Assembly: GCA_045661145.1 (NCBI GenBank)
Contig: JAZRFC010000075.1
Location: forward strand, 20,763 to 84,762
Direction of reading: 5' to 3'
DNA from: Clostridia bacterium
GTDB lineage: Bacteria; Bacillota; Clostridia; UMGS1883
DNA: 64,000 nucleotides
The position numbers were made by a program, and so were the translations under genes. Positions 6,249 through 38,211 of the stretch are shown piece after piece (the first letter of the stretch is position 1; the number at the start of each line of letters is the position of its first letter). The notes below the pieces were generated by a model. It was not told where the DNA came from and ran no database searches. It saw only the letters and a program-made list of their open reading frames with translations.

Positions 6249-6324
6249 CGGGGTGTAGCGCAGCTGGTAGCGCGCCTGCTTTGGGAGCAGGATGCCGCAG
6301 GTTCAAGTCCTGTCACTCCGACCA
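6249..6324 (+). tRNA. tRNA-Pro (anticodon UGG)
   Basis: Cloverleaf read directly: acceptor CGGGGTG/CACTCCG, anticodon stem CCTGC/GCAGG with loop TTTGGGA, T-arm GGTTCAAGTCC and a 3' CCA. Confidence 0.9.
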
Positions 6325-15275: not shown

Positions 15276-15566
15276 CTGTACCGGCCGGGGAGGTAGCGGT
15301 GCCCTGTATCCGCAATCCGCTATAGCGGAGGTTATGTCCCCGATTGAGGCGTTTTTTCAGTACGGCAGGAGCATTTAAGTGGTGTTGACGGTTGGGTCTT
15401 GCGCAATATCGGCCCGTGAACCTTGTCAGGCGGGGAACCGAGCAGCAATAAGCGGTCTCCGGTATGTGCCGCGAGGGTGCCTGACCCGAGCTAACTGAAT
15501 GATTTCCGCGTAGTGAATAACGTCGATTTCGGGGTGTACAGCGAAATGCGGATGGCAATGCCATCC
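15276..15566 (+). ncRNA. ffs: Signal recognition particle RNA (long Bacillus-type scRNA/ffs, ~290 nt)
   Basis: Domain IV motif TCAGGCGGGGAACCGAGCAGC, compared with E. coli TCAGGTCCGGAAGGAAGCAGC. It has GC-rich pairing 5' and 3' ends, a promoter just upstream, and the conserved synteny with dnaX-ybaB-recR found in Bacillus. The ends are approximate. Confidence 0.8.
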
Positions 15567-23722: not shown

Positions 23723-23919
23723 GCACGAAGTGCAACATCGTTTACACCTTAGGTGTAACATCATTGATGCGAAGCATCACATCGTTTGTGCAATAGCACA
23801 ACATCATTTTGTGTCCGTGAATATTTTTTGTTTGTGGCAAAGCCACAAAATGATGTTCAGGCAAAGCCTGAAATGGTGTTGACCGTAAGCGGTCAAATGA
23901 TGTTGTGTCCATAGGACAC
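23723..23919. repeat. Array of 8 short hairpin units (~22-23 bp period); units 1-4 end in AACATC(A/G)TT and units 5-8 end in its reverse complement AAATG(A/G)TGTT
   Basis: Read directly from the sequence (details in the findings). It is not CRISPR-like because there is no conserved repeat and no spacers of spacer length. Confidence 0.6.
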
Positions 23920-23957
23920 AAATACAAAAAAGCAAGCCTTACGACTTGCTTTTTTGA

Positions 23958-24033
23958 TGGTGGGAACAATAGGGCTCGAACCTATGACCCTCTGCTTGTA
24001 AGGCAGATGCTCTCCCAGCTGAGCTATGCTCCC
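23958..24033 (-). tRNA. tRNA-Val (anticodon UAC)
   Basis: The reverse complement GGGAGCATAGCTCAGCTGGGAGAGCATCTGCCTTACAAGCAGAGGGTCATAGGTTCGAGCCCTATTGTTCCCACCA has anticodon loop CTTACAA. Confidence 0.9.
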
Positions 24034-24036
24034 ATA

Positions 24037-24111
24037 TGGTGACCCGTACGAGATTTGAACTCGTGTTACCGCCGTGAAAGGGCGGTGTCTTAACCGCTTG
24101 ACCAACGGGCC
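24037..24111 (-). tRNA. tRNA-Glu (anticodon UUC)
   Basis: The reverse complement GGCCCGTTGGTCAAGCGGTTAAGACACCGCCCTTTCACGGCGGTAACACGAGTTCAAATCTCGTACGGGTCACCA has anticodon loop CTTTCAC. Confidence 0.9.
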
Positions 24112-24115
24112 AAAG

Positions 24116-24192
24116 TGGTAGCGGCGAGTGGGCTCGAACCACCGACCTAACGGGTATGAACCGTTTGCTCTAGCCAACTGAGCTACACCGCC
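24116..24192 (-). tRNA. tRNA with CAU anticodon (elongator Met, or Ile2 if lysidine-modified)
   Basis: The reverse complement GGCGGTGTAGCTCAGTTGGCTAGAGCAAACGGTTCATACCCGTTAGGTCGGTGGTTCGAGCCCACTCGCCGCTACCA has anticodon loop TTCATAC. Confidence 0.85.
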
Positions 24193-24225
24193 ACATGTAC
24201 AAGACTTTCGCCTGACACATTGGCT

Positions 24226-24254
24226 ATTATAATATAGCGTTTTACAAAAGTCAA
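24226..24254 (-). promoter_or_regulatory. Consensus sigma-A promoter of the tRNA Met-Glu-Val operon
   Basis: On the minus strand, TTGACT then a 17-bp spacer then TATAAT. Confidence 0.65.
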
Positions 24255-24277
24255 GTATTTTTTTCACTTTTTTTCAA

Positions 24278-24712
24278 TTATTTCCGAAGCAGCTCGTCAA
24301 ATGCCTCTATATAGCCATTCAGTCCCTTTCCCGTAATCGTCTTTTGGGCAACAAGGGAAATATAGGAAAACTGACGGAAGCTTTCCCTCTCCTCTATTTT
24401 GGAAATATGCACCTCTACCGTGGGGATTGCTACTGTCTTGAGTGCATCTAAAATAGCGATGCTTGTATGCGTATAAGCGGCAGGGTTTATGATTATCCCG
24501 TCAGTATTCCCGTACGCCGCCTGAATTCTGTCTACAATATCTCCCTCGTGATTTGACTGATAGAACTCCACCTCCACGCCTTTTTTGTCGGCGTGTGCCT
24601 GAACCATTTCTACCAAATCATTATAGGTAGACTTTCCGTACACATCAGGCTCGCGTATTCCCAGCATATTAAGATTGGGGCCGTTAATAACAAGTATCTT
24701 CATAAGTATCAC
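24278..24712 (-). CDS. aroQ: 3-dehydroquinate dehydratase, type II
   Basis: MKILVINGPNLNMLGIREPDVYG and 144 aa. Confidence 0.92.
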   Translation of the reverse strand: MILMKILVINGPNLNMLGIREPDVYGKSTYNDLVEMVQAHADKKGVEVEFYQSNHEGDIVDRIQAAYGNTDGIIINPAAYTHTSIAILDALKTVAIPTVEVHISKIEERESFRQFSYISLVAQKTITGKGLNGYIEAFDELLRK

Positions 24713-24940
24713 CTTTTATTCATTATTTTAAAATAGGGGATGTTAAAAAAGTCCAGACCGCAAAAAGGCAATAATAATATGGAAATTTAGGTGGTGCTTA
24801 AATCCAAAAACATCTTAATTTGGTTGAAAAATCTCACTTTATTCGATTTTTCTAAGTTTTTAAGCCTTTTTTGCTACGGGCAAACTTCGCCGCTCGCTGT
24901 ATACACATACAGCTTCGGGTAACCCACGGCAAGCCGTGGC

Positions 24941-26188
24941 TCAGTTTGTCCGTTCTGAAGCATTTTTTCCTATCCCCGTACATTTAAGAATTTGTGAGGC
25001 AGTTTCCTGCCACGTTTTTTGCGATTTTACGGAAAAGTGGCTTAATTTCTCGTACAAAGGAAAACGCACCTCGTACATTTCCCGGAGTTTTGATATGCCG
25101 CCTTGGGACAAGGGTCTGCCTTTAGTGGATAATCTTTCAACGTCACGGTCAATGAAAACAACCGTTCCATTCTGGTGTATTATATCGTAGTTTTCTTCCC
25201 TTGTCACAGCACCGCCGCCTGTCGCAATTACACAACCTGACTTTTTGCAAAGGTCGGCGAGGGTTTCCGTTTCTATTTTGCGGAAATGTTCCTCTCCATA
25301 TTTTTCTATAATTTCGGCAGGAGTTTCACCTTTTTTGGCAATTTCCTCGTCACTATCATAAAACTCCCTGCCCAGAAGCTCCGCAAGGTATTGCCCCACG
25401 GTTGATTTTCCCGAGCCGGGCATTCCCACGAGTATAATATTCTTTGTATCTTTTTCAATAATATTTTTTATGCGTGTAATTTCGCTGTCGGGAATTTCCT
25501 TGCCTGTAAATATTTCCGAGGCTTTTTTTGCCTGAGCTACAAGCATACCCAAACCGTTTGCCGTTTTGAGTCCTCGCTTTTCAGCATCAAGGATAAGTTT
25601 AGTTTTTGAAGGGTTGTAGATAAGGTCAAGCACGGCTTCACATTTTTTAAAATCATTAATTTCAACAGGTGACTTTCCCGTTTCGGGATACATTCCCACG
25701 GGAGTTGCATTTACAATAATCTGTGCGTCGTAATAGCTTTCCATATCCCCTGCCTTGATTTCGGCAGAAGTTACCGTCCGCACACTTTTTGCACCCATAT
25801 CGCTAAGAACACAGACCACGGTTTTTGCCGCACCGCCGGTTCCGAGGATGACCGCATCCTTTCCTATTATATCTGCACCCGTTTCCTTTATCTGATAAGA
25901 AAACCCGTAATAGTCCGTGTTATAGCCAACAAGCTTTCCGTCTTTTTTAAGGACAGTATTTACTGCCCCGATTCGGAGTGCATCGGGAGAGATTTCATCC
26001 AGATATTCGATTACGGTCTTCTTATATGGAATTGTGACATTAAGCCCGTCAAACTCCTTTTTCCGAAAGAACTCCCCTACCTCGTTTTCCGCAAGCTCCT
26101 TATATTCATAGGAATAGTCGGCAAGCTCATTATGGATAGGTTTTGAAAAAGAGTGACTGAGCTTTTTCGCAATTAGGTAAATGTTCAT
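24941..26188 (-). CDS. Bifunctional shikimate dehydrogenase / shikimate kinase (AroE-AroK fusion)
   Basis: The N-terminal ~270 aa is shikimate dehydrogenase with a GTGGAAKTVV Rossmann motif. The C-terminal ~140 aa carries the shikimate kinase P-loop ILVGMPGSGKSTVGQYLAELLGREFYDSD. Confidence 0.88.
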   Translation of the reverse strand: MNIYLIAKKLSHSFSKPIHNELADYSYEYKELAENEVGEFFRKKEFDGLNVTIPYKKTVIEYLDEISPDALRIGAVNTVLKKDGKLVGYNTDYYGFSYQIKETGADIIGKDAVILGTGGAAKTVVCVLSDMGAKSVRTVTSAEIKAGDMESYYDAQIIVNATPVGMYPETGKSPVEINDFKKCEAVLDLIYNPSKTKLILDAEKRGLKTANGLGMLVAQAKKASEIFTGKEIPDSEITRIKNIIEKDTKNIILVGMPGSGKSTVGQYLAELLGREFYDSDEEIAKKGETPAEIIEKYGEEHFRKIETETLADLCKKSGCVIATGGGAVTREENYDIIHQNGTVVFIDRDVERLSTKGRPLSQGGISKLREMYEVRFPLYEKLSHFSVKSQKTWQETASQILKCTGIGKNASERTN

Positions 26189-26193
26189 TAAAA

Positions 26194-27342
26194 TCAGGCC
26201 TCTCTGTAACTGCCAAGGTATTTCACGTTTTTCTCACCCAAAGAGTATTCAAGCAAGTCTATTATGGCAGGAAGCTTTTCGGAATAAACCGACACATCTA
26301 TATCGAAATAGAACATAAATTCGAAGTCGCTTTCGGGGATGGGACGGCTTTCCAATTTAATAATGTTGATGCCGAGAGAATAGAAATTTGCAATTACGCT
26401 GTAAAGAGCACCTGCTTTGTGAGGTGTCCTTATAAGAAGGCTTGTTCTATCGGCACCGGGGTAAATTTCAAGATTTTTGGAGAAGCAGATGAACCTTGTA
26501 TAGTTATTCTTTGTGTTCTGCACATAGGGCTTTACAACCTGCAGGCCATACTGCACCGCACAGATTTCTCCTGAAAGTGCGGCAACATCGCATCTTTCGG
26601 ATTCCGCTACCATTTTCGCAGCAACGGCTGTGTTTTCACATTCTGTTACCTTTACGCCCTTGCCAAGGGATTCAAGAAATTCACTGCACTGGCTGATTGC
26701 CTGAGGATGAGAATAGATTTCCTTTATATTTCCTAACTGAGTGCCCTTTTTGGAAAGCAGGCTGTGTTCTATCTGCATTCTTGTACTGCGGACAATACTG
26801 AATTTATGTTCACTCATAAGGTTGTATATCTGCGTAACACTACCTGCACTGCTGTTTTCAAGAGGCACTACGCCATACGCACAAAGTCCGCTTTCAACCG
26901 CATGGAAAACCGCCTCGAAAGAATTGCAATACATAATTGACGGTTTTTCAAAAAGCTTCTGACAAGCAACTGAGGAATGTGCCCCCTCTACACCCTGACA
27001 GGCAACAAATGCCTTTTCGGGAAAAAGGTTGGGGGTTTCCTGCATAGCCTTTTTAATACTCTCGGAAAGCCCTGATTGGGGAGAAAGGAATTTACTCTGA
27101 TAAGTACGGCTGAGGTCAAGAATGGAGCCGTAGAGTCTTCTTGCATAGTCACCGTATTCCTCGCCTGCATTTTCCTCTACTTTTTCAAGGAGTTTTCTTT
27201 CTCTTTCGGAATCATATACAGCCATTCCCGATTCTTTTTTATATGCGGCTACTTCCTTTGCTACATTCATTCTTTTTGTGAAAAGCTCTACCAATTCCTT
27301 ATCTATACTGTCTATTTCTTTTCTGCAATCTTCAAGATTCAT
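26194..27342 (-). CDS. pheA: Bifunctional chorismate mutase / prephenate dehydratase (P-protein) with ACT domain
   Basis: N-terminal AroQ-class chorismate mutase (DSIDKELVELFTKRMNVAKEVAAYK), then a prephenate dehydratase domain and a C-terminal ACT domain. Confidence 0.88.
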   Translation of the reverse strand: MNLEDCRKEIDSIDKELVELFTKRMNVAKEVAAYKKESGMAVYDSERERKLLEKVEENAGEEYGDYARRLYGSILDLSRTYQSKFLSPQSGLSESIKKAMQETPNLFPEKAFVACQGVEGAHSSVACQKLFEKPSIMYCNSFEAVFHAVESGLCAYGVVPLENSSAGSVTQIYNLMSEHKFSIVRSTRMQIEHSLLSKKGTQLGNIKEIYSHPQAISQCSEFLESLGKGVKVTECENTAVAAKMVAESERCDVAALSGEICAVQYGLQVVKPYVQNTKNNYTRFICFSKNLEIYPGADRTSLLIRTPHKAGALYSVIANFYSLGINIIKLESRPIPESDFEFMFYFDIDVSVYSEKLPAIIDLLEYSLGEKNVKYLGSYREA

Positions 27343-27354
27343 TTTTTCTGCACC

Positions 27355-28422
27355 TCACAAAATTTTATTTGCAACAGCTATTGCCGCTGCTGCTTCGATG
27401 CAGGCTACTGCCCTTTTTACAATACAAGGGTCGTGTCTGCCCTCTACTACAAGTGTTGTATTCTCTTTTTTGGAAAGAGACACACTCTTCTGTTCCTTTC
27501 CGATAGACGGAGTGGGTTTTATTGCCACCTTAAATATTATGGGCATACCACTTGATATTCCACCTAATATTCCGCCGTGGTTATTAGTTTCGGTTACTAT
27601 TTTTCCGTCTTTTACCATAAAGGCATCGTTATTTTCGCTTCCTCTTATTCTTGAGGAATCAAAACCTCTGCCGAACTCTATTCCCTTTACGGCAGGGATG
27701 GCAAATACTGCTGACGAAATACTGCTTTCCCATCCTCCGAAAAATGTGTTGCCAACACCGGCAGGCACACCTGTAATTGCACATTCTATTGTGCCGCCGA
27801 TACTGTCTGCATCCTTTTTGGCAGAGAGAATTTCCTCTTTCATTTTTTCGCCCTTTTCATCATTCAATACAGGGAAAGGCTTACTGTCTACAAAATCACT
27901 TTTAGTAACATTGCAGGGGTCAAAGCTGTCGTCCTCCACACTGCCTATTGAGGAAATATGCGCACCTATAAAAATGCCCTTTTCCTCCAAAAGTTGCTTC
28001 AGAATTCCGCCTGCTATACAAAGAGTGGCCGTGAGCCTGCCCGAAAACTGACCTCCGCCGCTTACATCTCTGTATTCACCAAATTTGCTCCATGCCGCAA
28101 AATCAGCGTGACCGGGACGTGGAATGTCTTTAAGGTTTTCGTAATCCTTTGAACGGGTATTGGTATTTTCTATGATACCGCAAAGGGGTGCACCGTTTGT
28201 AAAGCCGTTTGTAATTCCTGCAACAAACTTTACCTTATCCCCTTCTTTTCGGGTGGTGGAAAATTCATCATTACCCGGGGCACGTCGTGCCATAAAGAGG
28301 GAAAGCTTTTCCTCATCAATCTTAATTCCTGCAGGCAAGGCCTCGATAACTACGCCCATCGCCTCGGAATGAGATTGCCCAAAAAGAGATATTCTGATTT
28401 TTTCACCTGTCGTAAAGCTCAT
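27355..28422 (-). CDS. aroC: Chorismate synthase
   Basis: SLFGQSHSEAMGVVIEALPAGI signature. The start is set at MSFTTGEK (28422), overlapping the aroA end by 20 nt. The ORF extends to 28491. Confidence 0.9.
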   Translation of the reverse strand: MSFTTGEKIRISLFGQSHSEAMGVVIEALPAGIKIDEEKLSLFMARRAPGNDEFSTTRKEGDKVKFVAGITNGFTNGAPLCGIIENTNTRSKDYENLKDIPRPGHADFAAWSKFGEYRDVSGGGQFSGRLTATLCIAGGILKQLLEEKGIFIGAHISSIGSVEDDSFDPCNVTKSDFVDSKPFPVLNDEKGEKMKEEILSAKKDADSIGGTIECAITGVPAGVGNTFFGGWESSISSAVFAIPAVKGIEFGRGFDSSRIRGSENNDAFMVKDGKIVTETNNHGGILGGISSGMPIIFKVAIKPTPSIGKEQKSVSLSKKENTTLVVEGRHDPCIVKRAVACIEAAAAIAVANKIL

Positions 28423-29674
28423 TGCACTTACCTCCAAGCATAGTAAATTTTTCGTAGAATTCAGGGTAGGATTTATTGACCGCTTCGGCAATGTCTATGG
28501 TAACATCTCCCTTGCACACGAGAGATGCTATTGCACCACTCATTGCAATGCGGTGGTCGTTGGCACTTGTTATATTTCCGCCTGTAAGCGTGCTTCCCGT
28601 AACATAAATATTATTTTCATCAAAATCTATTTTTCCGTCAAGGGCTGTTATCATATCAACGGTGGTTTTAACACGGTCGCTTTCCTTGTCACGGAGCCGT
28701 TGTATATTTTTGAATACGGTAGTCCCCTCTGCCCTTGTTGCTGCTACACAAAGAATCGGAACAATGTCGGGAATGTCCGCACAATCTACCGTGATTGCCC
28801 TGAGATTTGATTTCTTTACAGTTACGCTGTTTTTGTCACGGGTTATATCGGCTCCCATCTTGTTGAGAATCTCCAAAGCACGGCTATCACCCTGAAAAGT
28901 ATCTTCACAAAGTGATGTGCAGGTAATACCCTCTTCCGAGCCGATGGCACCTGCCACTAGCCAGAATGCACCGTTTGACCAATCGCCCTCTATTTCAAAA
29001 AAATCAGTTGACGTAAACCTCTGCCCCTCGGGGACTATGTATCCGTTTTCCGTCTTTTCGGTATTTACACCAAATTTTTTCATAATGTCGATTGTTATAT
29101 CAATATACGGTCCGCTTTTTATGGGAGTGGTTGCCTTAATTTCTCCGCCGCCTGTTACACCAAGAGCTAAAAGGAGTCCCGTTATAAACTGACTGCTGAT
29201 GTTTCCGGGGATTTCAAAAATATTCCCCGAAAGCTGTCCCTCTGTTTTGCAGGGCAGAAAGCTTTCACCATAAGAGGTTGTTACTCCATTTTTGTTAAGC
29301 ACTTCGCACAAGGGAAGCAAGGGGCGTTCCCCCAGCCGTTCTGCACCTGTAAAGGTGCATTTTTTTCCAAGTGCCGCCGCAAATGGAAGCATAAAGCGGA
29401 GGGTTGAACCGCTTTCACGGCAGTTCAGAACACATTCACTGCCCTGCTTTTGGATGGGATAAACTGTCACTCCGTCTTTTGTATATTCAACTTTCCCACC
29501 GAGGGATTCTATGCACTCTATCGTTGCCTTTGTATCCTCGGAATAGGAGTTTGTTATAATCTTTGTTGGTCTGTCTGCCGCCGCCGCACATATAAGTGCC
29601 CTGTGCATACAGGATTTTGACGGTGGAGCTGAAACCGTTCCGTTTAGTTTTGAGGGTGAAAGCAAAACTTTCAT
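28403..29674 (-). CDS. aroA: 3-phosphoshikimate 1-carboxyvinyltransferase (EPSP synthase)
   Basis: 423 aa with an MKVLLSPSKLNGTVSAPPSKS... N-terminus and the EPSPS fold motifs. Confidence 0.92.
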   Translation of the reverse strand: MKVLLSPSKLNGTVSAPPSKSCMHRALICAAAADRPTKIITNSYSEDTKATIECIESLGGKVEYTKDGVTVYPIQKQGSECVLNCRESGSTLRFMLPFAAALGKKCTFTGAERLGERPLLPLCEVLNKNGVTTSYGESFLPCKTEGQLSGNIFEIPGNISSQFITGLLLALGVTGGGEIKATTPIKSGPYIDITIDIMKKFGVNTEKTENGYIVPEGQRFTSTDFFEIEGDWSNGAFWLVAGAIGSEEGITCTSLCEDTFQGDSRALEILNKMGADITRDKNSVTVKKSNLRAITVDCADIPDIVPILCVAATRAEGTTVFKNIQRLRDKESDRVKTTVDMITALDGKIDFDENNIYVTGSTLTGGNITSANDHRIAMSGAIASLVCKGDVTIDIAEAVNKSYPEFYEKFTMLGGKCNELYDR

Positions 29675-29675
29675 C

Positions 29676-30737
29676 TCATTCCATTCCTTCCTTTACAATG
29701 GCTAAAAATTCATCCATGCTGATATTTATAACTTCGCACTCGCCCACGCTTGTGGGTACTACAAGGGAAACTCTTGTGTCGTCTGCTTTTTTGTCGCTCT
29801 CGGCTCTTTTTAAAAGCACATCGGGAGAGTAGGGACATTTTACATCAAGGGCAAAAAGGTCAAGCATTTGTTTCAGTATATCACAAGTACCTTGTTTGCA
29901 CAAGCCACGCTTTTCCCATGCCTTTGTCACGATGTACATTCCCATTGCAACACATCTGCCGTGAGAAAGAGTGTAGTTTGCTTCCGTTTCGATTGCGTGT
30001 CCTGCCGTATGTCCGAAATTAAGGATTTTTCGGATTCCGCTTTCAAATTCGTCTTCTTCTACCACATCTCTTTTTATTTCAATACATCGGATAATAATTT
30101 CTTCAAGATTTTTTCTGTAATCCGCCATAAGGAGTCCGTCTATTTTCCTGCCACGTATAACGGCATACTTTATGACCTCTGCCATACCGTCGTCAAAATA
30201 TTCTTCGGGGAGAGTAGAAAGTACATCGGGGTCAAAAATTACCGCCTCGGGCTGATAAAATGCCCCTGCAAGATTTTTCCCTTGCTCAAGGTCGATTCCC
30301 GTCTTTCCGCCCACGGAAGAATCCACCGCTGCAAGAAGTGATGTGGGAATCTGCACAAATTTTACACCTCTCATATAGGTTGCCGCAGAAAAGCCCGTAA
30401 GGTCCCCCGTCACACCGCCGCCAAGGGCAAAAAGAGTGTCCTTTCTGGAAAAATGATTTTCAGCAAGGAAGTTCAGGATTTCAAGATATGTCTTTGCATT
30501 TTTAGATGATTCTCCAGCTGGAAAAACAAATTCAAAAACGCTCATCCCTATTTTTTCAAGGGGTGCCTTTACCCTTTCCATATACAGAGGAGCAACATTG
30601 GAGTCGGAAACTATCAGAGCTTTTCCGCCCATGCCAAGCTCCGCTGCATATTCTCCCACACGGTCTATTGAACCCTTTTTCACTATGACATCATATTTTT
30701 TTGAAGCATTAACCAAAATCTTTTTCATATTAACCAA
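29676..30737 (-). CDS. aroB: 3-dehydroquinate synthase
   Basis: 353 aa with the glycine-rich NAD motif GGGVTGDLTGFSAATYMRG. Confidence 0.92.
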   Translation of the reverse strand: MVNMKKILVNASKKYDVIVKKGSIDRVGEYAAELGMGGKALIVSDSNVAPLYMERVKAPLEKIGMSVFEFVFPAGESSKNAKTYLEILNFLAENHFSRKDTLFALGGGVTGDLTGFSAATYMRGVKFVQIPTSLLAAVDSSVGGKTGIDLEQGKNLAGAFYQPEAVIFDPDVLSTLPEEYFDDGMAEVIKYAVIRGRKIDGLLMADYRKNLEEIIIRCIEIKRDVVEEDEFESGIRKILNFGHTAGHAIETEANYTLSHGRCVAMGMYIVTKAWEKRGLCKQGTCDILKQMLDLFALDVKCPYSPDVLLKRAESDKKADDTRVSLVVPTSVGECEVINISMDEFLAIVKEGME

Positions 30738-31560
30738 TACTTTCCTTTATTTTTGTTCCCTCTTCCAAAAGTGCATGAAGTCTCGTCTTATCCCCCGTTT
30801 TGATAGCATCACTGTATTTCTGGAGCTCTGTTATAATATTGTCTATTTCAAAGCAAAGATTATCACCGTTTTCCATAAACAGTTCTGTCCACATATCGGG
30901 ATTAAGCTTTGCAACACGGGTTAAGTCACGGTAGCTTCCTGCCGAAAAGCCCTTGTGCACACGGGAGTTGGGGCTTTTTACATAAGCATTTGACACCACG
31001 TGGGCAAGCTGGGAGGTATATGCAATAATTTTATCGTGCTCCTCCGCGGAGCTTACCGTTACACTCTTAAAGCCTGCTTTCTGGAGAAGCTTCTTGGTTT
31101 TTTCAAGAATTTCTATGGTTTCATCTTTGTCGGGGACGAGAATCATTGATGCATTCTGAAACATTGATGCACGGGAATATTTAAATCCCGAAAACTGTGT
31201 TCCCGCCATAGGATGTCCCCCCATAAAACGGTAACCGTATTTTTTTGCAAGTGAAAAACCTTTTTTGCAGATTTCTCTCTTTGTGCCGCCACAATCAATC
31301 ACTGTGGTGCCTTCGGAAATAAAGTGGGAATATTCCTCCATAAATTCTATGGTTGCTTCGGGGTAAAGTGCTATAAAAACATATTCACAGCTTCCTATAT
31401 TTTCTTTCGTCAATTCATCTGTCAAAGCGTTTTCAAGTCTTGCCCGTGCAATTGTAACTTCGTCACGGTCACAGCCGAAAACTTCTATGTCCCCTGCTTC
31501 CATAAAGGCTTTCGCCATAGAACCCCCGATAAGCCCAAGACCTGCCACTGCAATTTTCAT
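30730..31560 (-). CDS. tyrA: Prephenate dehydrogenase
   Basis: MKIAVAGLGLIGGSMAKAF Rossmann N-terminus and 276 aa. Confidence 0.88.
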   Translation of the reverse strand: MKIAVAGLGLIGGSMAKAFMEAGDIEVFGCDRDEVTIARARLENALTDELTKENIGSCEYVFIALYPEATIEFMEEYSHFISEGTTVIDCGGTKREICKKGFSLAKKYGYRFMGGHPMAGTQFSGFKYSRASMFQNASMILVPDKDETIEILEKTKKLLQKAGFKSVTVSSAEEHDKIIAYTSQLAHVVSNAYVKSPNSRVHKGFSAGSYRDLTRVAKLNPDMWTELFMENGDNLCFEIDNIITELQKYSDAIKTGDKTRLHALLEEGTKIKESIG

Positions 31561-31561
31561 A

Positions 31562-32563
31562 TTACTTCATTGCCTCCATTACTTTTCTTACCGTATCTGA
31601 AACATCCTTAAACTGTGCAGGGGTAAGGGACTGTGCACCGTCGCAGAGTGCTTTCTGCGGGTTATTATGAACTTCTATCATAAGACCGTCGGCACCTGCA
31701 GCAACCGCTGAAAGAGCAAGGGGTTTAACAATTCTTGCAATACCGCAGGCGTGGCTGGGGTCAGCAATTACGGGAAGATGACTGAGCTCGTGAAGCATGG
31801 GGATTGCCGAAACGTCAAATGTATTTCTTGTTGCTGTTTCGTAGGTTCTTATGCCACGTTCACAAAGGATGATATTCTCATTACCCTCGCTCATAATGTA
31901 TTCGGCACTCATAAGAAGCTCCTTGAGAGTATTTGCAAGGCCTCTCTTTATAAGAATGGGCTTTTTCGCTTTTCCGAGTTCCTTTAAAAGTTCGAAGTTC
32001 TGCATATTTCTTGCGCCCACCTGAATAACATCAACATCCTCAAAGAGATGCAGGTGGTCGGCACTCATAATCTCCGTCACGATGGGAAGTCCCGTTTCCT
32101 TCTTAGCCTCTACAAGAAGCTTGAGTCCGTCCTCACGCATACCCTGGAAGTCGTAGGGTGAAGTTCTCGGTTTAAATGCACCGCCACGGAGGAAGTCTGC
32201 ACCTGCCGCCTTAACCGCTTGTGCCACCTCTATAATCTGCTCCTCGCTTTCAATAGAACAAGGTCCTGCAATAATTCCGAAGTGACCGTCGCCGATTTTT
32301 ACTCCTCCACAATCAATTACAGTGTTTTCGGTGCGGAATTTACGGTTGGCATTTTTGAAAGGTTCTGTTACACGGGTAACCTGTGTCACTATGTCAAGCC
32401 CCTCCAAAAGCTCTGTATCAATACGGCTAGTGTCACCGATAAGTCCCAATACCGTCTGATATTCGCCGGAGGAAATGTGAACACGCACATTCTGGCTTTC
32501 AATCCAGCTTATTAAATTGTCGAACTGTTCTTTCTTTGCATCACTTTGTACTACTACGATCAT
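31562..32563 (-). CDS. 3-deoxy-7-phosphoheptulonate (DAHP) synthase, type I-beta with N-terminal regulatory domain
   Basis: 333 aa. The KDO8PS-like core ([14 protein letters not shown]...[12 protein letters not shown]) is preceded by a ~90-aa ferredoxin/ACT-like domain, as in the Thermotoga/Bacillus type. Confidence 0.88.
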
Positions 32564-32588
32564 TTTAATTTTCCTCCCTATAAAAAAT

Positions 32589-32618
32589 AAACTCTGCAGT
32601 GATTGTCACTGCAGAGTT
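32589..32618 (-). terminator. Attenuator terminator between the leader peptide and the DAHP synthase gene
   Basis: On the minus strand, AACTCTGCAGTGA-CAA-TCACTGCAGAGTT (13-bp perfect stem) is followed by TTTATTTTTTA, 25 nt upstream of the RBS AGGGAGG. Confidence 0.8.
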
Positions 32619-32636
32619 ATTAAAAACATTCTCTTA

Positions 32637-32720
32637 TTATTCGCAGCACAAATCACTTTTACTTTGAGACATAATAAAGTAAAAGTAAAAATATGCAGCT
32701 GCGAATACAAATAAGCTCAT
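32637..32720 (-). CDS. Leader peptide of the aro supra-operon, 27 aa: MSLFVFAAAYFYFYFIMSQSKSDLCCE
   Basis: Own translation. The RBS AAGGAG lies 7 nt upstream of the ATG. A run of Phe/Tyr codons occupies codons 10-15, and the peptide sits between the promoter and the terminator. Confidence 0.7.
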   Translation of the reverse strand: MSLFVFAAAYFYFYFIMSQSKSDLCCE

Positions 32721-32748
32721 GTCTTTTCTCCTTTAAAGATTTCTTGTT

Positions 32749-32781
32749 ATTATATTAGCACTCTAAAGTGCTAAATGTCAA
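32749..32781 (-). promoter_or_regulatory. Promoter of the aro supra-operon with an internal palindrome
   Basis: On the minus strand, TTGACA then an ~18-nt spacer containing the palindrome TAGCACTTTAGAGTGCTA, then TAATAT/TATAAT. Confidence 0.6.
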
Positions 32782-32798
32782 TAACTTTTTTAAAAATT

Positions 32799-34304
32799 TT
32801 ATTCTTCTGTATTTTCACTACGGTTACTGAGAGTTACCTCTACCTGAGCTTCCGAATAACCGTCGGCACCGGGTACCATTACTGTAACGGGAACTTTTTC
32901 TCCCTCTTTATAATACTTCAGTCTGTCCTGAAGCTGTGCCAGAGCAGAAACAGTATATCCGTCAAACTTTGTTATAATATATCCCTTTTTGATTCCTGCT
33001 TTCTGTGCACCGAGTCCTTCTATAACCTCGGTCACAAACACACCTACGGGCATACCGAAAGCTTCGCTGCTGGAAGAATCCACGTCTGTGCCTGTTATTC
33101 CGAGGAATCCCTGCTTATCCTCGTCGACCATTTCTCTTGTGCGACGAAGCATAAGCTCGTCAATGATGTCCTCTACATCAGAAATGGGAATAGCATAGCC
33201 CATACCCTCTACGCCTGTGGTGGCAATTTTTACAGAGTTTATACCGACAAGATTACCTGCCATATCCAAAAGCGCACCGCCGCTGTTACCTGAGTTAATT
33301 GCCGCATCTGTCTGGATAAAGGAGTTTGTTACAACTGATTTTCCGTCAGAGCTTTTCATAGTTATACTTCTGTTAACGGCACTGATGATACCTGTTGTTA
33401 CCGACTGACCGTAGCCAAGAGCATTACCGATGGCAACAACCCTATCCCCCGGTTTGAGGGTTGAAGAATCGCCGATTTTTGCAACCTTGATTTCTGACAA
33501 AACATCCTTGGGTACATCTGCAATTTTCACAGAAATTACTGCCAGGTCTTTACCGACATCATACCCCTTTACCACAGCATGGGGAATATCCTCATCCGTA
33601 ATTTTTCCGTTCTGCCCGTTTTCTTCAAGACGCTTCTCAACAGGACTGAATACAACACTTAACTCCTTTGTATTTGCCACAACATGGTAATTTGTAACAA
33701 TGAGAAGCTCCGTTTCGTTCTGTCCGATAATGATGCCGCTGCCGCTGGAGGTACTCTCCTGCTGATATGTGCCGAAAAATGTAATTACATCCGATACGCT
33801 ACGGTTGGTAATTGCAACTACAGATGGCATACAAGCCTGAGCAATAGATGATATATCTCCCTGCACGTGAGATTCATTCTCCCCCTTATGGAGAATCACC
33901 TGCGTAGGCTCTAACCGATAGGAGCCGCCCGTAAGTCTTGTCACAAACCTATTTGCAATGCTGAAAGTCGTGCCAAACAAAATCCCTGCAACAACAGAAA
34001 GAGCAACCACACGGGGCCAGATACGCTTTTCTTTCTTTATCGTATGTGTCACATTAAATTCGGGAATTCTCTCGCCAAGACTCGGCTCACCTGAATCTTC
34101 TGGAAAATCTTCCTCTGTTTTTTCGAAGGCAGAATCCTCAACCTCGCTGAAAGATTCTTCAAGTGTTTCTTCCTCTATGGTGATTGTTTCTGTTTCGCTT
34201 TCTTCCACATCAAATTTATTTTCAAATTCGTTATTCATAAGCTGCCTCCTTGTATCTTTGAGCTTTTGCTCGTTTATTATATCATAAAAGATAAAAGTGT
34301 ACAA
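32799..34304 (-). CDS. htrA: HtrA/DegP-family serine protease with PDZ domain (membrane-anchored, acidic N-terminal region)
   Basis: GNSGGALLDMAGNLVGINS catalytic Ser motif, an HVV...D triad and a C-terminal PDZ domain, at 501 aa. Confidence 0.88.
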   Translation of the reverse strand: MYTFIFYDIINEQKLKDTRRQLMNNEFENKFDVEESETETITIEEETLEESFSEVEDSAFEKTEEDFPEDSGEPSLGERIPEFNVTHTIKKEKRIWPRVVALSVVAGILFGTTFSIANRFVTRLTGGSYRLEPTQVILHKGENESHVQGDISSIAQACMPSVVAITNRSVSDVITFFGTYQQESTSSGSGIIIGQNETELLIVTNYHVVANTKELSVVFSPVEKRLEENGQNGKITDEDIPHAVVKGYDVGKDLAVISVKIADVPKDVLSEIKVAKIGDSSTLKPGDRVVAIGNALGYGQSVTTGIISAVNRSITMKSSDGKSVVTNSFIQTDAAINSGNSGGALLDMAGNLVGINSVKIATTGVEGMGYAIPISDVEDIIDELMLRRTREMVDEDKQGFLGITGTDVDSSSSEAFGMPVGVFVTEVIEGLGAQKAGIKKGYIITKFDGYTVSALAQLQDRLKYYKEGEKVPVTVMVPGADGYSEAQVEVTLSNRSENTEE

Positions 34305-34393
34305 ACTATATTTAAAATGTTAAAAAATTTTTAATAATCTTCCGTTGATTACTAAAGACCGTGACAAGGAAATTTATCACGGTCTTTACTGAT

Positions 34394-35749
34394 TTAAAAT
34401 ATTCCGATATACGCATCAAGCACAGAAGAAACCAAGATTGCAATAATACAAACGGGTGCAAGGTACTTAATGACAAATGTGAAGAGTGCTTTTTTTCCAA
34501 ACTTTCCGCTAAGCTCTACTTCCTCGATGATAGCCTGAGGCTTAATTACATATCCGATAAATATGCAGGTAAAGAATGCTACAATGGGCATCATTACACT
34601 GTTGGTAATGAAGTCAAAGAAATCAAGCATCTGCATTCCGATAATGGTAGCTGTATCCCAGATGCTGTAACCGAAGCAGGAAAGAAGTCCCATAACAATT
34701 GAGAATACAAATACCACTGCAAGAGCAATTTTTCTGCTCCATTTGAGCTTGTCGCAAACAATAGACACAACGGTCTCCATCAGCGAAATGGAAGATGTAA
34801 GTGCCGCAAAAAGCACAAGCAAGAAGAAAAGCGTACCTATAATCTGTCCGCCTGCCATACTCTCAAACACCTTGGGAAGTGTTGCAAACATCAGGCTGGG
34901 GCCTTTGCCGAGAGCCTCGGGAGAACCGTTTGAAAAGGCATATGTAGCAGGGATAATCATAAGACCTGCAATAAAAGCGATACCTGTATCAAAAATTTCA
35001 ATCTGTGACACGGAGCTTTCAAGATTAACTTCCTTTTTCATATAAGAGCCGTATGTTACCATAATACCCATTGCAAGGGACATTGAGTAGAAAAGCTGTC
35101 CCATTGCTGCAAGAACGGTCGTTCCTGAAAACTTGCTGAAATCGGGAGTTATGTAATATTTCACACCATCAATTGCTCCGGGGATTGTCATTGCATAGCC
35201 TGCAATAACTATTGAAAGGATAACCAGAACGGGCATCATAATTTTGCTGACCTTTTCAACACCCTTTTCAACACCAAAAAGAACAACGAGGGCGGTGAGA
35301 CCGATATATATAAAGAACCAGCCAACAGGCTCTGCCGCGGAGGTTATGAATCCGCCAAAATAACTGTCCTGTGCCGCCATAACACCGCCACCTGTACAGA
35401 ACGCATAAAGGTACTTTGTTACCCATCCGCCTATTACAGAGTAATAAGGAAGGATTATAGCCGGTACAAAAGCCGCAAGATAGCCAAGAAAAGCAAATTT
35501 CTTGTTAAGCTTTGTAAATGCACCTACGACGCTGAGTCCTGTCTTTCTTCCGAGGGCAATTTCTGCAGTCATAAGGGCAAATCCAAGTGTTACCGCAAGA
35601 ATAAGATATGTAAGGAGAAATATTCCGCCGCCATATTTTGCCGCAAGATATGGAAATCTCCAAATGTTACCAAGTCCTACCGCGCTTCCTGCCGCCGCAA
35701 GAACAAAACCTATTTTTCCGGTAAAACTGCTTCTTTTTTCGTTTGACAT
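34394..35749 (-). CDS. Sodium-dependent transporter, neurotransmitter:sodium symporter (NSS/SNF) family
   Basis: GLGNIWRFPYLAAKYGGGIFL signature and ~12 TM segments. Confidence 0.88.
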   Translation of the reverse strand: MSNEKRSSFTGKIGFVLAAAGSAVGLGNIWRFPYLAAKYGGGIFLLTYLILAVTLGFALMTAEIALGRKTGLSVVGAFTKLNKKFAFLGYLAAFVPAIILPYYSVIGGWVTKYLYAFCTGGGVMAAQDSYFGGFITSAAEPVGWFFIYIGLTALVVLFGVEKGVEKVSKIMMPVLVILSIVIAGYAMTIPGAIDGVKYYITPDFSKFSGTTVLAAMGQLFYSMSLAMGIMVTYGSYMKKEVNLESSVSQIEIFDTGIAFIAGLMIIPATYAFSNGSPEALGKGPSLMFATLPKVFESMAGGQIIGTLFFLLVLFAALTSSISLMETVVSIVCDKLKWSRKIALAVVFVFSIVMGLLSCFGYSIWDTATIIGMQMLDFFDFITNSVMMPIVAFFTCIFIGYVIKPQAIIEEVELSGKFGKKALFTFVIKYLAPVCIIAILVSSVLDAYIGIF

Positions 35750-35868
35750 AGAGTAGCCTCCTCCTGTTACAAAAAAGCAGAATCACCACTAAGGTGATTC
35801 TGTTACTTTGTATTATGAGTATATTTTACCATATATTTAAAATATGTCAAGTCTAGGCATAAAATAAT

Positions 35869-37404
35869 CTAACCAAAATATTTTCTGTCAAGGCTTCTGT
35901 AACCGATTGCCTCGGCAATATCCATTTCGTTAATCTTTTCTCTGCCGTCACAATCTGCAATGGTACGGGCAACCTTTAAAATACGGGTATATGCTCTTGC
36001 CGTAAGCCCCAGAGAGTCAAATGCATTTTTAAGCATCTTGCTTTCATTTTCTCCGATTGCACAATATTTTTCTATAAGAGAGCCTGAAAGCTGTGAATTG
36101 GTTGTAATTGATTCGTTTTTATAACGCTCTTTCTGTATTTCACGGGCGGCGTTCACCCTCTTTTTAATATCCTGAGAGCTTTCGCCCTTCATTGCCTTAA
36201 GGTCTGAATACTTTACGGGTGCCGCTTCAAGCTGAATATCAATTCTGTCAAGCATAGGACCGCTTAGTTTACCGAGATACTTTCGTATTTCCGTTTCCGT
36301 ACATCGGCAACGGTCACTGCCGTCTCCATAATAACCGCATTTGCAAGGGTTAAGTGCCACAACAAGCATTGTGTTGCAGGGATATGTATAGGATGCTGAC
36401 GCACGGGTGACGGTGATTTTCTTGTCTTCAAGAGGCTGACGCATCGATTCTATTACATCTTTTCTGTATTCGGGAAATTCGTCGAGGAAAAGCACCCCGT
36501 TATGAGCAAGGGAAATCTCCCCCGGTCTTGCTTTTGCACCGCCGCCAACTATACTTACCGCACTTGCACTGTGGTGAGGGGTACGGAAAGGACGTGTGGC
36601 GATAAGCTTCGTATTGGAATCAAGCTCCCCTGCAATTGAGTATATTTTTGTAACCTCAATAGCTTCCTCCAAGGTCATATCAGGAAGAATTGTGGGAATT
36701 CTCTGGGAAAGCATTGACTTTCCGCTTCCCGGGGTCCCGATGAGCAGAAGATTATGCCCGCCACTGACACACAGTTCAATCCCGCGACGGAGAGCTATTT
36801 GTCCGCGCACATCAGAAAAATCTATATTGTATTGCGCCGATGAAGAAAATACCGATGCAACATCACACACGGTAGGCTCAATCAGTTCTTCTCCCGTGAG
36901 GTGGCAAAATACATCTGAAAGGCATTTTGCACCGTAAATTTCCACGCCCTCTGTAAGTGCGGCTTCATCAACATTATCAAGCGGCACTATAATCTTTCTG
37001 ATTCCCCACTCTTTCGCAGAGGTAACAAGAGAAAGAACACCGTTCACCGGACGAAGCTCACCCGAAAGGCCAAGCTCACCTATAAACATATATGGGGAAA
37101 GGTCTGCCTTAAGCTGACCTGTTCCTGCCATAATGGAAATTGCAATGGGGAGGTCAAATTGAGTTCCCTCTTTTTTAAGGTCGGCAGGAGCAAGATTTAT
37201 AACTGCACGCTTTGCAGGAAATTGAAAGCCGCTGTTTTTAAGTGCGGCACGAACTCTCTCCTTCGCCTCCCGCACGGTGGCATCGGGAAGTCCTACCACA
37301 TCAAAAGCAGGAAGTCCGTTGGAAAAGTCCGCTTCTACTATTACGCTTTTACCCTCAAGACCCGAGAGTGCACCTGTGTTCACCTTAACTATCATAAAAA
37401 ACAT
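35869..37404 (-). CDS. comM: YifB/ComM-family Mg-chelatase-like AAA+ ATPase
   Basis: 511 aa with a Lon-like N-terminus, Walker A LLIGTPGSGKSM and an Mg-chelatase ChlI-like C-terminus. Confidence 0.88.
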   Translation of the reverse strand: MFFMIVKVNTGALSGLEGKSVIVEADFSNGLPAFDVVGLPDATVREAKERVRAALKNSGFQFPAKRAVINLAPADLKKEGTQFDLPIAISIMAGTGQLKADLSPYMFIGELGLSGELRPVNGVLSLVTSAKEWGIRKIIVPLDNVDEAALTEGVEIYGAKCLSDVFCHLTGEELIEPTVCDVASVFSSSAQYNIDFSDVRGQIALRRGIELCVSGGHNLLLIGTPGSGKSMLSQRIPTILPDMTLEEAIEVTKIYSIAGELDSNTKLIATRPFRTPHHSASAVSIVGGGAKARPGEISLAHNGVLFLDEFPEYRKDVIESMRQPLEDKKITVTRASASYTYPCNTMLVVALNPCKCGYYGDGSDRCRCTETEIRKYLGKLSGPMLDRIDIQLEAAPVKYSDLKAMKGESSQDIKKRVNAAREIQKERYKNESITTNSQLSGSLIEKYCAIGENESKMLKNAFDSLGLTARAYTRILKVARTIADCDGREKINEMDIAEAIGYRSLDRKYFG

Positions 37405-37937: not shown

Positions 37938-38014
37938 ACGGGGTGTAGCGCAGTTTGGTAGCGTGCTTGCTTCGGGAGCAAGAGGCCGCGGGTTCAAGTC
38001 CCGCCACTCCGACC
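37938..38014 (+). tRNA. tRNA-Pro (anticodon CGG)
   Basis: CGGGGTGTAGCGCAGTTTGGTAGCGTGCTTGCTTCGGGAGCAAGAGGCCGCGGGTTCAAGTCCCGCCACTCCGACCA, with anticodon loop TTCGGGA and a 3' CCA. Confidence 0.9.
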
Positions 38015-38211
38015 ATCAAAATCTCAGTAACAAAGCGGTTTCTGAGGTTTTTGTTTTGTTTGGAAGCTCTAAATTTTGGCCACATAAAAAAGCGGTTCAA
38101 AGGAAAAGATGACTTTTTGTCTTTTGAAATCTAATAATTTTTACATTACGCATTATGCAATTAGAAATTTGCAACTATCTTGAAAATTTACTGTAATTAT
38201 TTCAAGTAGAA

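Follow-up and report, generated by a model that had tools for sequence, protein, structure and literature searches.

Genes and leader at the locus

A 64-kb stretch of DNA from a Clostridia bacterium (contig JAZRFC010000075.1; henceforth the window) carries on its minus strand a cluster of genes for aromatic amino acid synthesis, headed by the gene for 3-deoxy-D-arabino-heptulosonate 7-phosphate (DAHP) synthase and preceded by a short leader that has a Phe/Tyr-rich open reading frame (ORF) of its own. A sequence-only reading of this DNA had taken the leader for a leader-peptide attenuator, a proposal that the anatomy of the leader, its predicted folds and covariation across a family of related leaders support. 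Pfam matches identify the genes, given here in the order of transcription:

31562-32563, minus strand: DAHP synthase with an N-terminal ferredoxin-like domain (PF18152, FXD, and PF00793, DAHP_synth_1)
30730-31560, minus strand: tyrA
29676-30737, minus strand: aroB
28403-29674, minus strand: aroA
27355-28491, minus strand: aroC, the true start of which probably lies later
26194-27342, minus strand: pheA, of the chorismate mutase-prephenate dehydratase-ACT type (CM-PDT-ACT)
24941-26188, minus strand: aroE-aroK fusion
24278-24712, minus strand: aroQ, a type II dehydroquinase

The first seven genes, from DAHP synthase to aroE-aroK, overlap or are separated by gaps of at most 12 nucleotides (nt), and the cluster carries pheA and tyrA and no trp genes. 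What had been called a complete eight-gene supra-operon therefore holds for the identity of all eight genes and for the tight packing of seven of them; that aroQ belongs to the same transcript is plausible but less secure, given the gap of 228 nt (24713-24940) that separates it from aroE-aroK.

The leader itself is made up of the following features, some of which overlap:

32781-32776, minus strand: -35 hexamer TTGACA, invariant among the six closest leaders
32773-32756, minus strand: promoter-spacer palindrome TAGCACTTTAGAGTGCTA (TAGCAC-N6-GTGCTA), perfect over 6+6 bases
32760-32752, minus strand: extended -10 element TGCTAATAT (TG, one base, then TAATAT at 32757-32752); close relatives share both GTGCTA and the -10
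32733-32728, minus strand: Shine-Dalgarno sequence AAGGAG of the leader ORF, 7 nt ahead of its ATG
32720-32637, minus strand: leader ORF of 27 codons plus stop, encoding MSLFVFAAAYFYFYFIMSQSKSDLCCE
32707-32676, minus strand: region 1, the 5' arm of the 1:2 hairpin, with the Ala codons GCAGCUGC and the Phe/Tyr codons
32706-32698 and 32647-32639, minus strand: inverted repeat ATTCGCAGC and GCTGCGAAT
32702-32695, minus strand: self-complementary GCAGCTGC
32693-32676, minus strand: regulatory codon run Tyr-Phe-Tyr-Phe-Tyr-Phe (UAU UUU UAC UUU UAC UUU)
32665-32638, minus strand: region 2, the 3' arm of the 1:2 hairpin, reading AAAGUAAAAGUGAUUUGUGCUGCGAAU and holding the family motif AAAGUAAAAGUGAUUUGUGCUGC
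32657-32642, minus strand: 5' strand of the antiterminator, within region 2
32639-32637, minus strand: stop codon of the leader ORF
32618-32606 and 32602-32590, minus strand: perfect 13-bp stem of the intrinsic terminator, with loop CAA and a U-run at 32589-32582
32614-32598, minus strand: 3' strand of the antiterminator, spanning the loop of the terminator together with part of its 5' arm and the initial 5 nt of its 3' arm
32578-32573, minus strand: Shine-Dalgarno sequence GGGAGG of DAHP synthase, with the ATG at 32563

The promoter, of sigma-A type, was found as the sequence-only reading had given it (TTGACA...TAATAT, with an 18-nt spacer between the two hexamers), and a preceding TG makes the -10 extended. 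The AAGGAG sequence, the 27-codon ORF and its YFYFYF run were each located on the minus strand, as were the self-complementary GCAGCTGC and the inverted repeat within the ORF. For the terminator, the perfect 13-bp stem and the U-run were recovered, but the distance had been overstated: the stem ends 12 nt, and not about 25 nt, before the Shine-Dalgarno sequence of DAHP synthase, and 26 nt before its ATG. Directly after the terminator hairpin (32618-32590) the sequence reads UAUUUUUU.

Folding of the leader RNA

The leader RNA is predicted to fold at -61.1 kcal/mol, against -34.2 +/- 3.7 kcal/mol for dinucleotide shuffles (z = -7.4, with 0/200 shuffles as good). Its ground-state fold combines the 1:2 hairpin (-28 kcal/mol) with the terminator, the 3:4 hairpin (-19.7 kcal/mol). 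In the competing 2:3 antiterminator (-14.5 to -15.3 kcal/mol), the partner of region 2 (AGUGAUU-U-GUGCUGCG) is a stretch that runs from the terminator 5' arm through the loop to nucleotide 5 of the 3' arm. The antiterminator is the best fold when a ribosome is placed on any of codons 10-16 and no more than 5-8 nt of region 4 have been transcribed; with the terminator complete, the whole segment folds at -21.8 kcal/mol. The mutually exclusive antiterminator, which had been put forward as a test of the attenuation proposal, thus exists in the folds of truncated transcripts, and it co-varies across the family (see below).

The position of the ribosome fits these pairings. With assumed footprint sizes, region 2 would stay accessible beside a ribosome that has the last Phe codon in its A site, and a ribosome standing at the stop codon (32639-32637) would mask the GC-rich end of this region; the stop codon of most family members lies inside region 2 or at most 6 nt from it. 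The hallmarks of an attenuator that sequence and folding can show are present in the leader: a Shine-Dalgarno sequence and start codon of its own, codons for the end products, a terminator, an antiterminator that excludes it, and a 1:2 hairpin that sequesters region 2.

Leaders of this kind precede most related DAHP synthase genes

We scanned contigs with the DAHP synthase as query and kept the best 80 species-level loci (64-94% identity), which come from Oscillospiraceae, Lachnospiraceae, Ruminococcaceae, Acutalibacteraceae, Christensenellaceae and Anaerovoracaceae. The closest locus (94% identity) belongs to a metagenome-assembled genome of the Oscillospiraceae, and cultured strains are represented by Pseudoflavonifractor sp. 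AF19-9AC (L021) and Angelakisella massiliensis (L042). The gene order DAHPS-tyrA-aroB-aroA is seen again in most of these loci. Under a strict criterion, namely a small ORF on the coding strand, at most 350 nt upstream and with at least five aromatics in seven residues, a Phe/Tyr-rich ORF precedes DAHP synthase in 65/80 loci, compared with 4/80 on the reverse complement, 1.4 in shuffles and 0/74 in coding segments. Inspection added four loci in which such an ORF falls just outside the strict criterion (L016, L049, L068 and L070). A hairpin with a U-run follows in 65/65 leaders, 13-62 nt past the stop codon of the small ORF. Moreover, a Shine-Dalgarno-like core stands ahead of 62/65 leader ORFs, compared with 13% for the remaining ATGs of these regions; the former figure is somewhat inflated, as start codons were picked partly by their Shine-Dalgarno sequence.

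The Phe/Tyr codon run is therefore conserved in orthologous leaders, as the attenuation proposal had asked, and the Phe/Tyr leader is the majority state among the nearest 80 species-level loci. The remark that such a leader is unusual for Firmicutes holds against textbook models only, since among the nearest Clostridia it is the rule.

Individual loci depart from this pattern. The Phe/Tyr ORF is displaced to about 400 nt upstream of DAHP synthase in L049 (L049:1140-1570), with repeat-like sequence between, and to about 480 nt upstream in L070, where the intervening sequence is very GC-rich; these displacements may reflect insertions into the leader. DAHP synthase operons without a Phe/Tyr leader occur in Clostridia (L005, L012, L037, L062 and L077), in loci labelled Bacteroidaceae (L014, L034 and L046) and in spirochaetes (L076 and L079), and an Rfam search of the 15 related loci lacking the leader returned nothing relevant. 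DAHP synthase does not come first in L015 and L030, where a pheA-like ACT domain ends just upstream. No convincing second element turned up when the window was scanned for other small ORFs resembling leader peptides and for additional occurrences of the region 2 motif.

Covariation and selection on the pairings

An alignment of 39 leaders reveals a shared core (GCAGC, UAYUACUUU and AAAGUAAUAGYGAUUUGUGCUGC, then the terminator), and RNAalifold recovers both the helix between the Phe/Tyr codons and region 2 and the terminator, with compensatory changes in 11/17 pairs. One codon position alternates between UAU (Tyr) and UUU (Phe) and is matched in region 2, with 19 A-U pairs, 15 U-A pairs and one C-G pair; such A/U-only alternation is expected if the base must pair and the codon must stay aromatic.

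The antiterminator was examined by folding over the 65 leaders. The segment that would lie beyond the ribosome, up to the terminator loop, folds better than shuffles with a mean z of -1.75, and 76% of the bases of the terminator 5' arm are paired upstream as against 54% in shuffles. Since the MAFFT alignment (A2) puts the terminator subtypes GCAGUGA and GCCGCAC in different registers, there is no single column map of the antiterminator, and we used instead a duplex test that compares own with foreign partners. The energy of pairing between region 2 and the terminator 5' arm and loop is -13.9 kcal/mol when both come from one leader and -10.2 kcal/mol when the terminator is that of another family member (permutation z = -11, p < 1/3000), whereas composition controls with reversed sequences gave z of about -1. 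The effect survives dereplication to 53 lineages, and the terminator loop with its four adjacent bases alone still gives an own-versus-foreign z of -8.4. A plain terminator has no reason for such a locus-specific match between its loop and region 2.

A further question is whether the small ORF is kept for its peptide. Region 2 is translated as SKSDLCC in the group to which the window belongs, includes two stop codons in tandem (UAA UAG) in a second, large group, and in other lineages is read in other frames or lies past the stop codon. As codons, nothing stays constant across the family except the Phe/Tyr run and the two Ala codons with which GUGCUGC pairs. This pattern argues that region 2 is under RNA rather than peptide constraint, and the lineage-specific frames speak against a functional micro-protein and for a sensor of ribosome position. 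A hydrophobic micro-protein with a terminator of its own, the aromatic operon then being driven from a separate promoter, would account for the hydrophobic peptide and for the strong terminator behind it. We regard it as extremely unlikely, however, because the peptide is unconserved outside the Phe/Tyr run, varies from 14 to 47 residues and ends in a frame that differs by lineage, because the 26 nt between the terminator and the DAHP synthase ATG hold no promoter-like site, and because the terminator loop is complementary to region 2 locus by locus.

Codon content follows the target gene

The leader peptides (65 leaders, 14-47 residues) consist to about 35% of the two residues in question (18.7% Phe and 16.4% Tyr), with at least two Phe and at least two Tyr in 63/65 and not a single Trp in 1643 residues. 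Where tyrA directly follows DAHP synthase, the share of Tyr among Phe and Tyr is 0.49 (n=48), compared with 0.29 where it does not (n=10; Mann-Whitney p = 3.5e-6, uncorrected for phylogeny).

Used as a query against metagenomes, the 21-nt motif of region 2 matched at least 120 contigs, mostly from the human gut, and among the 120 matches listed 109 have DAHP synthase about 100-130 nt downstream of the motif. Two others among these matches (L102:60-230 and L121:1640-1810) carry Tyr-dominated leaders (MTNLFATNSYYYYYYFNN, MTKSFVAISYYYYYYFEN; SYYYYYYF) directly before a stand-alone tyrA and share both the region 2 motif and the terminator. Another two (L107:4404-4640, minus strand, and L169:1590-1820) have leaders with one Trp (MTMIRRSYYYGYYFWMQE, MTMLRRSFYYYGYYFWKKK; SYYYGYYFW). 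The L107 leader precedes an ABC transporter composed of a PF04392 substrate-binding lipoprotein, a BPD_transp_2 permease and an ATPase, presumably an aromatic amino acid uptake system under the same control, and the L169 leader is followed, on a short contig, by the start of a near-identical lipoprotein only. Codon content thus appears to be tuned to the target gene.

These data also bear on whether the RNA needs to be translated at all. Much of what is conserved is RNA sequence and helices, and region 2 is conserved whatever its reading frame, as would be expected of an untranslated structured RNA (a metabolite riboswitch or protein-binding leader) in which Phe and Tyr codons are a by-product of a U/A-rich helix. 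Such an RNA would not, however, require the aromatic run to be in frame with an ATG behind a Shine-Dalgarno-like core in nearly all members, nor would it explain the strand asymmetry (65/80 versus 4/80), the restriction of the co-varying codon position to A and U where G and C would pair equally well, or a Tyr/Phe content that follows the downstream genes. It matches no Rfam family either, and we consider it very unlikely.

A probable ribosome-mediated attenuator for Phe and Tyr

Taken together, the anatomy, folds and family comparison indicate that the leader is very probably a ribosome-mediated transcription attenuator that senses charged tRNA-Phe and tRNA-Tyr and controls read-through from the sigma-A-type promoter into DAHPS-tyrA-aroB-aroA-aroC-pheA-aroEK and perhaps aroQ. 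Its segments and pairings were computed; the order of events follows the classical trp/phe model. Transcription would start near 32745, and region 1 (the Ala codons GCAGC and the Phe/Tyr codons) would form a strong hairpin with region 2 (AAAGUAAAAGUGAUUUGUGCUGC). If the leader is left untranslated, region 3 would pair with region 4 and polymerase would terminate at the U-run (32589-32582). Once a ribosome has arrived at the stop codon (32639-32637) and masks region 2 at its GC-rich end, the 3:4 terminator would likewise form and termination would follow. When Phe-tRNA or Tyr-tRNA is scarce, by contrast, the ribosome would stall on codons 10-15, hold region 1 and free region 2, which could then pair with the terminator 5' arm and loop as they emerge, so that the terminator is blocked and the operon transcribed.

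The ferredoxin-like N-terminal domain mediates feedback inhibition of DAHP synthase by Tyr and Phe in Thermotoga maritima. Because the enzyme of the window carries this domain, its activity and its transcription would both answer to the same two end products.

Several observations weigh against this model. At equilibrium the terminator is 5-7 kcal/mol stabler than the antiterminator and forms in every full-length fold, including those with a ribosome mask at each codon. By energy alone the window's own antiterminator is no better than shuffles (z = -0.67), so its support comes from the family comparison. There, the anchored ungapped alignment is illustrative only, its 22 distinct sequences (25 leaders) having been chosen to fit one register: 82% of cells pair, slid registers collapse, and 29 cells have changed on both sides against 8.4 expected (0/500 shuffles). 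With the terminator stabler at equilibrium, the attenuation model rests on kinetics and on synchrony between ribosome and polymerase. Masked equilibrium folds ignore the order of synthesis and were judged uninformative because attenuators work kinetically; folds of truncated transcripts were used in their place. A terminator stabler than its antiterminator is normal for the class, and in the E. coli trp leader the energies of the 1:2, 2:3 and 3:4 pairings are ordered alike. A different kind of objection is that Bacillota are classed at the phylum level as having 'runaway' transcription (PMC13323073), which would make a closely trailing ribosome harder to achieve unless a pause synchronises ribosome and polymerase. 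Ribosome-dependent attenuation of antibiotic-resistance genes is known in Bacillus, though (PMC9226507), and the 'runaway' class is thus no contradiction in principle.

Relation to known systems

No relevant match (Phe_leader, other leaders or T-box) was returned by Rfam 15, either for positions 30000-36000 at E <= 10 or for the whole window at gathering score, the sole matches being spurious microRNA and small RNA models far below threshold. This bears on a T-box or other tRNA-binding leader that would sense uncharged tRNA directly, T-boxes being the common form of control of aromatic genes across many Firmicutes (PMC2965389). Given the lack of a T-box or other Rfam match at E <= 10, a distance from start codon to terminator that is too short (about 130 nt) and the absence of a specifier-loop architecture, the probability of such a leader is negligible.

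Like the E. coli leaders of pheL-pheA (Rfam Phe_leader), trp and his, the ribosome-mediated attenuator proposed here has four segments. The regulatory codons lie in the first, the 1:2, 2:3 and 3:4 pairings exclude one another, and the terminator is stabler than the antiterminator. Unlike pheL-pheA, which has Phe-only codons and serves pheA only, the Clostridia family mixes Tyr and Phe codons, heads a supra-operon and has no Rfam match.

Closer in its target is the aroR-aroF system of Corynebacterium glutamicum, in which, according to the summary in PMC11802643 of Neshat et al. (2014), a Phe-Tyr-Phe leader peptide increases read-through upon ribosome stalling. Both systems, as far as that summary describes the C. 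glutamicum one, place a Phe/Tyr-codon leader peptide ahead of a DAHP synthase operon; the comparison, by description only, sets a three-codon signal in Actinobacteria against a run of at least six codons here, and the window operon also carries the whole common pathway together with tyrA and pheA. By the same summary only Phe limitation had an effect in C. glutamicum, and we therefore infer, rather than conclude, that Phe and Tyr jointly gate the window operon.

Other reported elements share single features with the family. The uORFC-13-1 motif (Brewer et al. 2021, PMC8632094), which occurs exclusively upstream of aroF, combines a candidate small ORF containing 'at least one' Phe codon with a terminator and has 24 representatives, found only in Acholeplasma and unassigned environmental sequences; compared by description only, it is alike in its position upstream of aroF and in having a Phe-codon small ORF next to a terminator. 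His leader-peptide attenuators have been predicted in Firmicutes, in Bacilli, Peptostreptococcaceae and Erysipelotrichales (PMC2965389; PMC9413887), likewise with a leader peptide in place of a T-box, but they serve another amino acid and other genes, and each is narrowly distributed. In Clostridioides difficile, premature termination has been mapped in the aroF 5' untranslated region and no known riboregulator was assigned to it (bioRxiv 10.1101/2020.08.10.244764); it may be the same element.

The literature searched, which left most subscription journals outside, contained no description of a Phe/Tyr leader family in Clostridia. The mechanism is classical and the conceptual advance modest; a conserved, sizeable family in Clostridia appears to be new. 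We propose tentatively, and with real room for doubt, that the leader of the window belongs to an undescribed and widespread family of Phe/Tyr-sensing attenuators in gut and rumen Clostridia, with a small regulon made up of an ABC transporter and stand-alone tyrA besides the DAHP synthase supra-operon, and with codons adapted to the target in each case. So prevalent a family would imply, for a class of Bacillota, synchrony of the leading ribosome with RNA polymerase throughout the first ~150 nt. Confirmation would mean that many abundant Clostridia of gut and rumen, among the Oscillospiraceae, Lachnospiraceae, Christensenellaceae and Anaerovoracaceae, set transcription of the whole Phe/Tyr pathway by ribosome stalling and not by T-boxes, TRAP or repressors. 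The family clearly illustrates a dual-coded RNA, in which a Tyr or Phe codon has to be kept while its bases also pair with region 2. If true, the family would be a natural reporter for transcription-translation coupling outside Bacillus, in a phylum classed as uncoupled, and the cultured carriers Pseudoflavonifractor sp. AF19-9AC and Angelakisella massiliensis offer a test bed for ribosome-dependent attenuation and polymerase synchrony in Clostridia. For annotation, the 21-nt region 2 motif together with a Phe/Tyr small ORF is a simple marker of these leaders, the ORFs of which gene callers miss or would label as hypothetical micro-proteins.

The promoter palindrome and the upstream neighbour

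The palindrome in the promoter spacer, also pointed out by the sequence-only reading, is present in the window, yet it is not conserved as such across relatives. Among the closest relatives compared, its left arm is partly present in L001 and absent from L002, L047, L003 and L004, and its right arm coincides with the conserved extended -10. Simple arithmetic predicts about 16 chance palindromes of 6+6 bases in 64 kb for one fixed spacing, and this one therefore carries no significance by itself. With the left arm missing in 4/5 nearest relatives we rejected it as an operator, and it is probably not one. A repressor bound there as the main control, with the leader playing a minor part, would suit a perfect 6+6 palindrome that spans the spacer and the -10, but the same observations (an arm absent in 4/5 closest relatives, another that is the extended -10, and the ~16 expected by chance per fixed spacing) make this highly improbable. 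At most, the palindrome could add a lineage-specific layer of control to that exerted by the attenuator.

Upstream of the leader lies a gene for an HtrA-like serine protease (32799-34304, minus strand; Trypsin_2 and PDZ domains), a neighbour also found in L001, L003 and L047. Only 18 nt separate the end of htrA from the -35 hexamer, with no terminator predicted between them, and transcription of htrA may to some extent run on into the leader.

The distal end of the operon and other features of the window

No terminator is predicted in the 228-nt gap between aroE-aroK and aroQ, and judging from the sequence it is plausible that aroQ is co-transcribed with the seven upstream genes. A GC hairpin lacking a U-run (CCACGGCUUGCCGUGG) directly follows the aroE-aroK stop codon on the minus strand, and a promoter-like site (GTGACA-17-TATAAT, 25207-25179, minus strand) sits inside the 3' end of aroE-aroK. 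Because of this site and the gap, aroQ may have some independent expression.

A tRNA-Met, tRNA-Glu and tRNA-Val cluster (24192-23958, minus strand) directly follows aroQ and has its own near-consensus promoter (TTGACT-17-TATAAT, 24254-24226) and terminator (23956-23925); the 124-residue ORF at 23893-24267 that overlaps it is spurious. Elsewhere, the window holds the bacterial large signal recognition particle RNA (15276-15541, plus strand, 198 bits) and two tRNA-Pro genes (6249-6324 and 37939-38015).

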